The notes below the pieces were generated by a model. The model made no database searches, was not told where the DNA came from, and saw nothing but the letters and a program-made list of their open reading frames with translations. Of a DNA stretch of 64,000 nucleotides, positions 6,016 to 59,991 are shown piece after piece (the stretch's first letter is position 1; each line of letters starts with the position of its first letter). The DNA is taken from NCBI GenBank assembly GCA_018823795.1, contig JAHJGZ010000081.1, positions 44,325 through 108,324 on the forward strand, read 5' to 3'. This DNA is from Candidatus Omnitrophota bacterium. GTDB taxonomy: Bacteria; Omnitrophota; Omnitrophia; JAHJGZ01. The position numbers and the translations under genes were made by a program.

Positions 6016-6151
6016 GTAGCAGGCGGGGATCAATGATGCTGAACATATACTTTGCCAGCTGGCCGGCAAAGTATTAATTCCCTGCCTACCGGCAGGCAGG
6101 CGGCAAATTAGTTATCTTGCTGCCGCGGCGGTAACTAATGCCGTCATTGAA
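5982..6151. repeat. Hairpin-module cluster (4 modules) spanning the rlmI-like 3-prime end to the next RBS
   Basis: Module order: CTCGCCGC..GGCGGGG, ATCAATGA, GAACATA, TACTTTGCCAGC/GCCGGCAAAGTA, TTAATTC, CCTGCCTACCGGCAGGCAGG, CGGCAAATTAGTTA/TAACTAATGCCG, TCATTGAA. Confidence 0.8.
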
Positions 6152-6507: not shown

Positions 6508-6873
6508 GGCGACGGGGGACGTGTCCCCGCCTGATTCGATTGTGCACTTATTGAGGAGGTAAGCGAATCAAAGCGGCGAGGATACGTGAAGCCTAAACTT
6601 ACGGAACTATGTGACGTAAGTTTACTGGCTGAACATATACTTTGCATGTTAAAACGGGCAAAGTATTAATTCGCGCAAATGACTTACGTCGTCCTACCGG
6701 ACTCCGTAAAGTATGGCCTCATTTACGAGTTTCGTCCTGCGTGAGGCGACGGGGACGTGTCCCCGCCTGATTCGCTTGTGCACTTATTGAGGAGGTAAGC
6801 GAATCAAAGCGGCGAGGATACATTCCGACAGATACTTTAGCATCGCTACTGCTCGCTAAAGTATGTCGTCATG
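6489..6873. repeat. Hairpin-module cluster with a roughly 96-bp direct repeat
   Basis: 6489-6585 and 6726-6821 are near-identical. Between them lies the GATACGTGA-hairpin-GAACATA-hairpin-TTAATTC composite, plus a chimeric hairpin at 6673-6718. Confidence 0.8.
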
Positions 6874-15764: not shown

Positions 15765-15937
15765 GGCCATACTTTATGGAGTCCTATAGGACGACATAAA
15801 GTATAGGGCCGAATTTATCCTCGCCGCTTTGCTACGCTTGTCTGTCTAAGACGCACACAAGCGTAGCTGGCGGGGATAAATGAAAAGACTTTTGCCGCCG
15901 CTTTGCTTCGGTTTGAGAAGCTGGCGGGGGCAAATGA
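15758..15937. repeat. Hairpin-module cluster (3 modules)
   Basis: Module order: AAATGA, GGCCATACTTTATGG..CATAAAGTATAGGGCC, GAATTTA, two CGCCGC..GGCGGGG hairpins, CAAATGA. Confidence 0.8.
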
Positions 15938-15962: not shown

Positions 15963-16220
15963 ATGAAGAAGACGCCTTCCATGCCCGCCCGCAATGATAC
16001 TAAGGCTAAAAAAAATAAAGACCCGTTGCATGGAGTTACGCTCGAGTGTATGGTGAAGCGTTTACAAGAATTGTATGGCTGGGAGGAGTTAGGGCGAAGA
16101 ATAAAAATAAACTGTTTTAATCATGATCCCAGTATACAGTCGAGCCTCACATTCTTACGAAGGACTCCGTGGGCCCGGAAAAAAGTAGAAAGGTTGTATG
16201 TAAATGAAGACACAACTTAG
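15963..16220 (+). CDS. VF530/DUF2132-family small DNA-binding-fold protein
   Basis: [61 protein letters not shown]. The last 5 codons are read from a hairpin module. Confidence 0.7.
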
Positions 16221-16607
16221 CGAACGAAGTGAAGCTAAGTTGTGTGTCTGAATTTACCCAGCACCCAGCAGAACAAATATGTATTATGTTTATGTTTTAA
16301 AAAATATTAAAGATAAAAATCTTTATTATTGATATACGCGTGATTTAAGTCGTCGTCATAAAGAACATAATACGAATAAAAAAAGTGGGAGTTGGTTTAT
16401 TGCGAAGCGCATAAATTAGAAATCGACGCTCGGAAGAGAGAAAAAAGATTAAAACAATATGGCCAAGCACGCAGTGGTCTTAAATCACACATTAAGGAAT
16501 CGCTGAGATAGTACAACTGGGTGCTGGGTTAATTCCTGCCTGCCGGCAGGCACACAGTAACTTATGTCGTTCATCCTGAACTTCCATAAGTTACGTGTTC
16601 ATTAAAG
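16201..16607. repeat. Hairpin-module cluster in which one module carries a GIY-YIG pseudogene as its loop
   Basis: Module order: AAATGA, GACACAACTTAGC/GCTAAGTTGTGTGTC, GAATTTA, CCCAGCACCCAG (16257-16268), the ORF, CTGGGTGCTGGG (16517-16528), TTAATTC, CCTGCCTGCCGGCAGG, ACAGTAACTTATG/CATAAGTTACGTGT, TCATTAAAG. Confidence 0.8.
16279..16511 (+). pseudogene. Degraded GIY-YIG (URI-domain, COG2827-like) nuclease gene
   Basis: MYYVYVLKNIKDKNLYY, then TGA at 16330, then YTRDLSRRHKEHNTNKKSGSW. After a 1-nt frame change near 16395 it reads VYCEAHKLEIDARKREKRLKQYGQARSGLKSHIKESLR and ends at 16511. Confidence 0.75.
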
Positions 16608-25495: not shown

Positions 25496-25591
25496 CGACA
25501 TATTTTAGCGAGTGATAACAAAGCTAAAATATAAGTCGGAACTTATCCTCGCCGCTTTGCTTCGGTTTGAGAAGCAGGCGGGGATCAGTGA
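25489..25591. repeat. Hairpin-module cluster (2 modules)
   Basis: Module order: CAGTGA, CGACATATTTTAGC/GCTAAAATATAAGTCG, GAACTTA, CTCGCCGC..GGCGGGG, ATCAGTGA. Confidence 0.8.
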
Positions 25592-25927: not shown

Positions 25928-26287
25928 TTAATTCGTGTCAGTTGTCCCGACTCGTAAACGAGGGCACAATTTTACAGCGATTATGCCCTACTCGTCGGGA
26001 TACGTGAAGACATATTTTACAGAACGAAATGATGTAAAATATAAGTCTGAACATATACTTTGCCAGATATCTGGCAAAGTGTTAATTCGTTTCATTGCCC
26101 CCGCCAGCTACGCTTGTGTGCCTATTGGACAGGCAAGCGTAGCAAAGCGGCGGGGATTAATTCCCTGCCTACCGGCAGGCAGGCGGCAAATTAGTTACCT
26201 TGTTGGCACGGCGGTAACTAATGCTGTCATTGAAGGCGGGGATCAATGAAAATATTTTGCAACAGTTTTTCGAGACGGAAAACATGA
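25928..26287. repeat. Hairpin-module cluster (about 8 modules plus half-modules)
   Basis: Contains ATTAATTC, the CCCGACTCG../..CGTCGGG hairpin, the GATACGTGA-hairpin-GAACATA-TACTTTGCCAG palindrome-TTAATTC composite (25999-26088), an inverted CCCCGCC module, CCTGCCTACCGGCAGG, CGGCAAATTAGTTA/TAACTAATGCTG, and TCATTGAA. Confidence 0.8.
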
Positions 26288-32096: not shown

Positions 32097-32397
32097 TGAG
32101 GCCATATTTTATGGAGTCCTTTGGGACGACATAAAATATTTGGCCGAATTAACCCTCGCCGCTTTGTTTCGCTTTACGAAGCAAAGCGAAACAGGCGGGG
32201 GCTAATGAAACAAACTTGAAAACATAGTCGAATTAATACTTTGCCAGCCAGCTGGCAAAGTATAAGTTCAGCCAACAAACTTACGTCACGATATTCCGTA
32301 AGTTTGGGCTTCACGTACCCTCGCCGCTTTGTTTCGCTTTACGAAGCAAAGCGAAACAGGCGGGGGCTAATGAAACAAACTTGAAATATTAACATAC
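32094..32397. repeat. Hairpin-module cluster (5 modules) with a 69-bp perfect direct repeat
   Basis: TAATGA, then GGCCATATTTTATGG..CATAAAATATTTGGCC, then GAATTAA. 32153-32221 is identical to 32318-32386. An inverted copy of the TTAATTC..GAACATA..GATACGTGA composite lies at 32230-32319. Confidence 0.8.
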
Positions 32398-32421: not shown

Positions 32422-32517
32422 ATGCCATGCGGACGAAAACGTAAAAAGAAGAAGATGAACAAGCACAAACGGAAAAAAAAGTTACGACTCAATAGACACA
32501 AAAAGAAACTTAGATAA
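32422..32517 (+). CDS. Very basic 31-aa peptide, bS22/AURKAIP1-like
   Basis: Hand-translated as MPCGRKRKKKKMNKHKRKKKLRLNRHKKKLR. The KMNKHKRKK..R..RHKK pattern is typical of this small ribosome-associated family. GAGG lies 8 nt upstream. Confidence 0.5.
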   Translation: MPCGRKRKKKKMNKHKRKKKLRLNRHKKKLR

Positions 32518-50039: not shown

Positions 50040-50422
50040 ATGAGGCCATACTTTATGGAGTCATTGGGGACGACATAAAGTATATGGCCGAATTTATACT
50101 TTGCCAGCTAGCTGGCAAAGTATTTAATCGCGTGGCTCGGTTGAATCCAGCACAGCTGGATAAATGTATCCCCACACTAATTGTATGAAAAGAGATTTAC
50201 AAGAATTGGTGTGGGGGTACATGTCTGTATACACCAAAACCCGATTAGACAATGTTTTTGTATGCTGTTTAACGGGATACGTGAAGCCCAAATTTACGGA
50301 GCAGAATGCGACGTAAGTTTGTTGGCTGAACATATACTTTGCCAGCTGACTGGCAAAGTATTAATTCGACCATATCACTTACGTTGTCATCGTGACACCG
50401 TAAGTAATGGTCTCATTAAAGG
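50037..50422. repeat. Hairpin-module cluster (about 8 modules) filling the entire bamA-skp spacer
   Basis: TAAATGA, then GGCCATACTTTATGG.., GAATTTA, the perfect palindrome TACTTTGCCAGCTAGCTGGCAAAGTA, and CCCCACAC(T)AATTG/CAATTGGTGTGGGG. The GATACGTGA composite follows (50276-50367), then GACCAT..ACTTACG/CGTAAGTAATGGTC and TCATTAAAGG. Confidence 0.85.
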
Positions 50423-59871: not shown

Positions 59872-59991
59872 GGCTGAATTTATCCCCACACCAATTGTGT
59901 GAGGGATATTTACGCAGAATTTGAAATAATTGGTGTGGGGATTTAATTCGCACATATGGTTTATGTCGTAAAAGGCACGTGCAGCATGTGC
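59831..59991. repeat. Hairpin-module cluster (3-4 modules)
   Basis: Module order: CCTGCCTGCCGGTAGGTAGG, CGAAGTGA, GAATTTA, TCCCCACACCAATTG/CAATTGGTGTGGGGA (59883-59941), TTTAATTC, GCACAT..ATGTGC. Confidence 0.75.

Follow-up and report, generated by a model that had tools for sequence, protein, structure and literature searches.

A GIY-YIG nuclease pseudogene in the loop position of a hairpin module of an Omnitrophota contig, probably the remnant of an Ssn-like unit with terminal inverted repeats

We analyzed a 64-kb stretch of the genome of a Candidatus Omnitrophota bacterium (assembly GCA_018823795.1, contig JAHJGZ010000081.1, positions 44,325 to 108,324; hereafter the window), in which a pseudogene of a single-domain GIY-YIG nuclease lies between the two arms of an inverted repeat, in the loop position of an intergenic hairpin module. 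We consider it probable that this feature is a decayed unit, made up of an Ssn-like GIY-YIG nuclease gene of 76-77 codons and its own A-CCC(C)-N-CAC terminal inverted repeat, and nicking directed by hairpins may have served to spread or maintain the hairpins. Ssn proteins form a family of single-domain GIY-YIG nucleases that cut single-stranded DNA (ssDNA), and ssn genes are flanked on both sides by NTS/SRM hairpin repeats, of which a genome contains hundreds of dispersed copies (Chenal et al. 2025, Nat Commun, PMC11893778). The general idea is therefore already published for a related clade, and the statement in an earlier note on this DNA, that no partnership between a GIY-YIG nuclease and REP-like (repetitive extragenic palindromic) repeats had been described, is outdated.

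Results

A GIY-YIG pseudogene enclosed by inverted arms

The 12-bp arm CCCAGCACCCAG at 16257-16268 has its exact reverse complement at 16517-16528, forming a perfect inverted repeat, and no further perfect copies of the arm were found in the window. With the connectors GAATTTA and TTAATTC included, the inverted repeat comprises 19 nt at 95% complementarity (16250-16268 vs. 16517-16535). The frame-corrected translation of the enclosed segment (16279-16511) matched the Pfam family PF01541 with 27.8 bits (cut-off 22.6, E-value 3e-6) and was 62-66% identical to intact proteins of 76-79 amino acids across 100% of its length. Because the pseudogene aligns end to end with these intact proteins, nothing has been deleted and the lesions are two only. 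One is a TGA at 16330-16332, which stands in place of the invariant Gly of the YYGYT motif and is most simply explained as a GGA-to-TGA mutation; the other is a frameshift within an A7 homopolymer run (16378-16384). The copy in the window is thus inactivated. The earlier note, made from the letters alone, had described the perfect 12-bp repeat, a GIY-YIG pseudogene in the loop position of a module, one in-frame TGA and one frameshift, and had proposed a profile search of the corrected translation as a check; the alignment with full-length homologs and the PF01541 match bear out this description. The unit occupies a GAATT|AATTC slot, with an A-type hairpin module at 16202-16256 on its left and one in the opposite orientation at 16553-16607 on its right.

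Since the stop codon replaces an invariant glycine, recoding of TGA was also considered; in genetic code 25, used by some candidate phyla, UGA is read as Gly. This was rejected, as long open reading frames (ORFs) read normally under table 11 and neighboring genes end in TGA. No other GIY-YIG remnants were found in the 64-kb window. An Rfam search of the region returned no RNA family and no intron RNA, and no terminator-like site was found there.

A second assembly of the same population, GCA_043813055.1 (locus L084; 99.9% identical), carries both lesions too. Being near-identical and sharing the lesions, it is uninformative on when the gene died. The two sequences differ by 13 mismatches in the 20.8 kb compared, and four substitutions are clustered in one 12-nt hairpin loop (window 16222-16233, L084 7842-7853), in the hairpin directly left of the pseudogene. 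The variant loop of this hairpin extends the stem.

Intact homologs and their flanks

Species-representative genomes were scanned with an alignment of seven sequences, which returned 80 loci. Eighteen of them, from Omnitrophota, Planctomycetia and one metagenome-assembled genome (MAG) labelled Babeliaceae, were treated as the Omnitrophota-type set. When the right arm was allowed to overlap the ORF end, a flanking inverted repeat scoring at least 12 was present in 58 of the 78 loci and in none of the controls (shifted positions in the same homologous loci, n = 390); under the stricter setting without ORF overlap, the values were 42/78 and 0/390. The terminal motif TTnA|CCC(C)nCAC(C) was found on both sides of the gene in 46 of 79 loci, vs. 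4 of 633 control windows. Loci with an arm-bracketed intact gene belong to Omnitrophota, Planctomycetota, Patescibacteria and others, and share the arm core A-CCC(C)-N-CAC. In the homologous loci the right arm begins 0-5 nt past the stop codon or overlaps it.

The wider surroundings are conserved as well. In 17 of the 18 Omnitrophota-type loci, GAATT/AATTC connectors and two opposed A-type hairpin modules frame the unit as in the window, the module on the left being AATGA-hairpin-GAATT (17/18) and that on the right AATTC-hairpin-TCATTrAAGGAGG. Two intact homologs, one in a single-cell genome of Omnitrophota and one on a metagenome contig from JGI, show the layout of the window throughout: the upstream gene is followed by AATGAGG-hairpin-GGCCGAATTTA, a CCCAGCAC-type arm, the ORF and the complementary arm, then by TTCAATTC-hairpin-CATTGAA and the next gene. 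Both questions that the earlier note had put to the homologs, whether inverted repeats of this type flank them and whether module connectors do so too, were thus answered positively, the second for the Omnitrophota-type set, in which the hairpin modules are present as well. In L001, L002 and most other Omnitrophota-type loci, the right end of the unit, CTCATTrAAGGAGG, holds the Shine-Dalgarno sequence of the downstream gene, and the GIY-YIG ORF itself usually has no recognizable ribosome-binding site.

The Patescibacteria form is longer (84-90 residues) and, with an hhalign score of 231 to the short form, falls in the same protein family; its arm core is the same, and no such connectors were seen in the flanks of the Patescibacteria loci. 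Among 73 homologs the catalytic Tyr, Tyr, Arg, His and Glu are conserved, and the family comprises about 750 clusters at 50% identity (E-value up to 1e-10). The genomic context differs at every locus, with the units placed in tight intergenic gaps and co-oriented with housekeeping genes. Among 2.9 million viral contigs only two weak matches were obtained, so that the family is essentially absent there. Searches of PADLOC, PHROGs and NCBIfam yielded no more than weak and unspecific homing-endonuclease matches, which stayed below the cut-offs. An AlphaFold model of an intact homolog (pLDDT 90) has a complete GIY-YIG core in a single domain, and the structures most similar to it are UPF0213 BH0048, the Slx1 nuclease domain (TM 0.65-0.69) and I-TevI.

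Relationship between gene and arms

Between the inner arm sequences, complementarity is 84% when both come from one locus and 36% when they come from different loci, and arm divergence correlates with protein divergence (Mantel r = 0.32, 0/1000 permutations). On these sequence comparisons, arm pairing is under selection. At two loci of one MAG (L004 and L005), sequence identity is about 95% over the stretch that begins with GAATTTGA, takes in the gene and ends with TTTAATTCG; directly outside this stretch the two are unrelated. A Saccharibacteria contig (L069) carries two identical tandem units ahead of tRNA-Ala. The units therefore share two features with insertion sequences: they have terminal inverted repeats, and a genome can carry several of them as sharply bounded copies. 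Hairpins that have the same core but enclose no gene, with loops of 3-54 nt, were detected in 13 of the loci, and two more are present in the window, at 50164-50222 and 59882-59942 (59876-59949 in Table 1); the arm of the latter equals the arm of a gene-bearing unit in locus L035. Because the arms co-vary with the protein and the paralog boundaries include arms and connectors, the arms are somewhat more likely to represent the termini of the unit itself than an older module into which the gene inserted.

Insertion sites

A tRNA gene lies 0-20 nt from the GIY-YIG stop codon in many Patescibacteria (loci L021, L047, L048, L023, L032, L037, L063, L036 and L069). In the clear cases, which involve tRNA-His (three genomes), tRNA-Val, tRNA-Ile and tRNA-Ala, a sequence of 9-11 nt from the start or the end of the tRNA recurs as a direct repeat on the other side of the unit, and the terminal GGGG or GGGTG of the right arm is taken from the tRNA. 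Possible repeats of AATT or CAAATG were observed at insertion points elsewhere.

Insertion of hairpins has also disrupted a gene in the window itself. An 83-nt insert (1251-1333), made up of two hairpins, interrupts the DUF6132 gene (1186-1415) behind codon 22 and has CAAATG on each side. The insert brings a stop codon and a frameshift, and the rejoined protein of 48 amino acids matches PF19628 across the junction with 43.6 bits, so that modules have inserted in this genome. The recurring connector AAATGA may be the duplicated target. Moreover, a 16-nt direct repeat, AAAGGAATAAACAATG, consisting of a ribosome-binding region and ATG, occurs at 1173-1188 and 1537-1552 and brackets the whole DUF6132 gene together with its downstream hairpin chain. 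It looks as if the DUF6132 segment was inserted along with a duplicated start region.

Hairpin modules and neighboring genes in the window

Hairpins with at least 10 paired bases are concentrated between genes, with 44 in about 10 kb of intergenic DNA vs. 21 in about 54 kb of coding DNA. The pentamers AATGA, TCATT, GAATT and AATTC are found next to 20 of the 44 hairpins between genes, compared with 2 of the 21 in coding regions, which agrees with the view of the earlier note that the pseudogene unit is set between connectors like the other modules. The connector heptamers GAATTTA and TTAATTC show no window-wide enrichment; 14 of the 24 copies of TTAATTC fall in the intergenic DNA.

Several classes recur (Table 1). 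A-type modules, in the frame AATGA-hairpin-GAATT, are found in both orientations, and another class consists of hairpins with CCCCACAC-type arms. Nine modules have CCyCGCC...GGCGrGG stems, of which none occurred in shuffled sequences, and five of the nine are framed by TCAT...AATT; their loops are 20-40 nt long and often contain a nested hairpin. A CCTCGCC-type module is present in two apparently identical copies 165 nt apart (32154-32200 and 32319-32365; with flanks to AATGAAACAAACTTGAAA, roughly 32147-32208 and 32312-32373), pointing to a recent local duplication. A short hairpin, ATACTTTGCCAG-N4-CTGGCAAAGTAT, was identified in five near-identical copies, at 6047-6074, 26055-26082, 32234-32265, 50096-50123 and 50334-50361. 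Like the GIY-YIG unit, these copies lie in the slot between the connectors GAACAT or GAATTT and TAATTC.

Table 1. Features of the pseudogene unit and related hairpin modules in the window.
Feature	Position	Strand	Remarks
Left arm with connector, GAATTTA + CCCAGCACCCAG	16250..16268	+	Core fits the family-wide terminal motif TTnA|CCC(C)nCAC
Single-domain GIY-YIG nuclease pseudogene, 76-77 codons	16279..16511	+	PF01541; homolog alignment
Right arm with connector, CTGGGTGCTGGG + TTAATTC	16517..16535	+	Begins 5 nt past the stop codon
Left A-type hairpin module: AAATGA, stem AGACACAACTTAGC / GCTAAGTTGTGTGT (16208-16247), then CTGAATTTA	16202..16256	+	Sequence
Small G+C-rich palindrome TGCCTGCC/GGCAGGCA	16535..16552	.	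Sequence; between connector and right-hand module
Right A-type module, opposite orientation: stem GTAACTTATG / CATAAGTTAC (16557-16594), then GTGTTCATTAAAG	16553..16607	-	Sequence
Framed SRM-like modules, TCATT-CCCCGCC...GGCGGGG-AnTAATT	1794-1845, 1925-1996, 15812-15883, 26092-26162, 32147-32208		
Stem-only copies of the CCCCGCC-type module	6525-6581, 6761-6817, 25547-25583, 32319-32365		
Gene-less hairpin of the same class as the unit: GAATTTA-TCCCCACACCAATTGT, 27-nt loop, ATAATTGGTGTGGGGA-TTTAATTC	59876..59949	.	
Further gene-less hairpin of this class: ATGTATCCCCACAC, 31-nt loop, GTGTGGGGGTACAT	50164..50222	.	

Beside the unit, the upstream VF530-family gene (15963-16220) has its last five codons and stop codon (16203-16220) inside the left module, which therefore supplies the C-terminus of the VF530 protein. 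On the other side, the downstream SGNH-hydrolase gene has its start region directly next to the right module. CCTGCCTACCGGCAGGCAGG units resembling the palindrome at 16535-16552 come after TTAATTC at about 6080 and about 26165. A small ORF in a hairpin-rich gap (32422-32517) encodes a very basic peptide of 31 residues, MPCGRKRKKKKMNKHKRKKKLRLNRHKKKLR. The peptide had no match in Pfam and resembles the small lysine-rich ribosomal proteins of the bS22 type.

Discussion

Proposed mechanism

SsnA of Neisseria meningitidis, a single-domain GIY-YIG protein of 94 residues (cd10448), binds the NTS hairpin repeat and cuts ssDNA just upstream of it, and neither duplex DNA nor RNA is cut; cleavage also works with a stem built from two separate oligonucleotides (PMC11893778). 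By analogy, the two arms of the unit would pair in ssDNA into a stem of the kind that the gene-less hairpins of the class also form. The nuclease would bind the paired-arm stem and its flank and nick beside the stem. Such nicks, completed by host repair or replication, could generate, spread or maintain the hairpin family, and the same hairpin-directed nicking might also copy the gene-bearing unit itself. The arrangement would then be analogous to an insertion sequence with its miniature inverted-repeat elements (MITEs), or to a RAYT with its REPINs. For Ssn, the authors noted that NTS-ssnA-NTS resembles an insertion sequence, and mentioned mobility as speculation only (PMC11893778).

A more far-reaching interpretation is put forward tentatively. 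The units might belong to a kind of prokaryotic mobile element that is not yet classified, with a minimal hairpin-guided GIY-YIG nuclease as the sole gene, ACCCCnCAC ends and gene-less hairpins as non-autonomous derivatives. Insertion would regenerate a short target (AAATG, AATT or a tRNA end), so that arrays would grow into chains, and such elements would be spread over Omnitrophota, Planctomycetota and Patescibacteria.

A number of results weigh against a nuclease-driven unit related to Ssn. No intact GIY-YIG copy was found in the source MAG or in the near-identical GCA_043813055.1, both of which are incomplete, so the abundant modules of this genome are not tied to an active enzyme. GIY-YIG enzymes hydrolyze DNA and cannot ligate it, and any mobility would therefore need host functions. 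Pooled direct repeats of at least 7 nt beside the arms were not significantly enriched (7/52 vs. 35/244 controls), and the lengths of direct repeats at the insertion points vary (5-6, 9-11 and 16 nt); only the positioned tRNA-end cases are convincing. A metagenome scan with the neighboring SGNH-hydrolase revealed no orthologous locus and no empty site, and no unoccupied hairpin-GAATTC-hairpin slot was found in the window or in the approximately 80 loci. The relation to Ssn is also incomplete. Published criteria for Ssn are a single domain of <150 amino acids, a BLASTP match to N. meningitidis SsnA with E-value <1e-10 and at least 75% coverage, and cd10448 as the top CDD assignment, and SRMs are searched on both flanks with the pattern HGTCWYN(0-2)YYVSBRHN(0-5)WNVSBRGN(0-2)RNCYNB (PMC11893778). 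In a BLASTP search with gonococcal SsnA (from L086), none of 47 clade members passed, the best E-value being 2.8e-7 (1e6-residue space). The SRM pattern had no match in the 64-kb window, while it detected 4-8 copies around the Ssn genes of Neisseria (gonococcal), Shinella, Rhizobium and Azospirillum. Furthermore, the clade arms form one split stem with the core ACCCCnCAC, whereas SRMs are two self-contained hairpins.

Alternative explanations

The earlier note had offered two readings, in which the protein is either the mobilizing or maintaining enzyme of the hairpins or the product of a gene that homes into their loops, and the two cannot be separated by sequence alone. Under homing, a free-standing selfish GIY-YIG gene would cut the center or loop of pre-existing palindromic modules and be copied in by repair; the arms would be target halves and the gene-less hairpins empty targets. 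Such hairpins do exist with the same arms and short loops (3-54 nt), the GAATT/AATTC slot holds other short hairpins too, and GIY-YIG is the classic homing-endonuclease fold, to which the weak PHROG and PADLOC matches also point. Patescibacterial GIY-YIG-domain genes in general, for which membership in the present clade was not shown, have been predicted to be horizontally transferred in groundwater communities (PMC12455944). We nevertheless regard homing as unlikely, given a protein of only 76-90 residues that, unlike I-TevI-type enzymes, has no separate DNA-binding domain, its near absence from viral contigs and the lack of intron RNA in the Rfam search of the region. In addition, the arm sequence tracks the protein phylogeny and the homology block of the paralogs takes in arms and connectors, a pattern which long co-conversion tracts could mimic.

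Rather improbable is a domesticated nuclease/hairpin system without ongoing mobility, in which the arms would be binding or regulatory sites and the function might be control of incoming ssDNA or of recombination. Neisseria SsnA/NTS, for which such a role is proposed, modulates natural transformation (PMC11893778), and the position of the units in tight intergenic gaps, co-oriented with housekeeping genes, would suit a host function. A fixed function is harder to reconcile with a context that is different at every locus, with several diverged copies per genome and one tandem pair, with a gene that decays here while the modules persist, and with the disruption of DUF6132 by module insertion. 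Finally, this genome has many hairpins between its genes, and the inverted repeat might be due to chance or act in an ordinary way at the RNA level, for example as a terminator or mRNA-stabilizing stem, unrelated to the gene. This is very improbable, because none of the 390 controls reached the observed repeat score, the arm core is conserved across phyla, neither a terminator-like site nor an Rfam match was obtained in the region, and the modules are present in both orientations. An Ssn-like unit with its own terminal repeat, decayed in this genome, is therefore our favored explanation.

This explanation would extend the partnership of nuclease and hairpin repeat, so far described for Ssn alone and mostly in proteobacteria, to a separate clade of smaller proteins with a different repeat. 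The hosts belong to poorly studied phyla with small genomes, in which such repeats take a large share of the intergenic DNA. Sequence evidence for movement comes from the sharp-edged paralogs, the tandem pair, the duplications at tRNA ends and the gene that modules interrupt. Naturally occurring arm-enzyme pairs, with their co-variation, offer many candidate specificities for tools that cut ssDNA, and the units may provide a tractable system for how a purely hydrolytic nuclease could propagate palindromic repeats.

Comparison with known systems

The best solved-structure matches of the clade, in both sequence and fold, are UPF0213 proteins (YazA, YhbQ and BH0048) and the Slx1 domain. Profile similarity to UPF0213 is lower than that to Ssn: the short form scored 89.6 against the Ssn profile and 63.6 against UPF0213 in hhalign (72.6 for Ssn vs. 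UPF0213), and the long form 136 and 103. The clade occurs in contexts that vary among loci, whereas yazA of B. subtilis has a fixed housekeeping context between trmNF and rsmI and no flanking SRM match, inverted repeats as such not having been scored at this gene; membership in UPF0213, which would show as closest profile together with conserved housekeeping context, is thus not indicated. With GIY-YIG homing endonucleases (I-TevI and the free-standing Seg type) the units share the catalytic fold and probably a selfish-gene lifestyle. They differ from them in having no joined DNA-binding domain, no intron and almost no copies on viral contigs, so that neither the domain structure nor the intron or phage residence of this group was found.

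The elements of the IS200/IS605 family are also very small, and their subterminal hairpins, like the arms here, would be recognized in ssDNA. The enzyme class is different, and insertion of IS200/IS605 is free of duplication, which the direct repeats at tRNA ends do not fit; to our knowledge, GIY-YIG proteins are not among the known transposase types. As in REP/BIME-RAYT systems (REPINs), a single nuclease gene, usually of low copy number, lies between inverted copies of an intergenic palindromic repeat, and the repeats are chained in alternating orientation. The likeness to REPs around RAYT genes drawn in the earlier note is therefore apt, with the difference in nuclease class that it had already stated: a RAYT is an HUH Y1 tyrosine transposase that cuts and rejoins ssDNA, while the enzyme here is a hydrolytic GIY-YIG nuclease of unrelated fold, which places the units outside REP/RAYT.

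The closest system is Ssn, the nearest relative by profile-profile comparison. Both consist of a small single-domain GIY-YIG protein (here 76-77 codons in the window copy, with PF01541 as the sole domain found), whose gene is flanked inversely by hairpin repeats that are also dispersed in intergenic clusters. An SRM hairpin is found near 71% of Ssn homologs and on both sides in 42% (PMC11893778); around the present gene, dispersed hairpin-forming repeats likewise occur on both sides, with a motif unlike SRM. The clade proteins have 76-90 amino acids vs. about 94-98 in Ssn, and do not contain the GFTxxY insertion and the C-terminal LIExxNPxWxDL tail of Ssn. Their hosts are Omnitrophota, Planctomycetota and Patescibacteria, while Ssn is mainly found in Pseudomonadota. 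Nine modules of the window have SRM-like stems, and five of these also have the TCAT...AATT frame, with a much longer loop. They do not fit the SRM pattern, and identification of the window modules as SRMs was rejected on this ground; the similarity of the CCCCGCC modules (TCATT-CCCCGCC...GGCGGGG-ATTAATT) to SRMs hints at a common origin. Because the clade is nearer to Ssn by profile but failed the BLAST and SRM criteria, we treat it, on these sequence comparisons, as a probable sister group or early-diverging lineage of Ssn whose cognate repeat differs.

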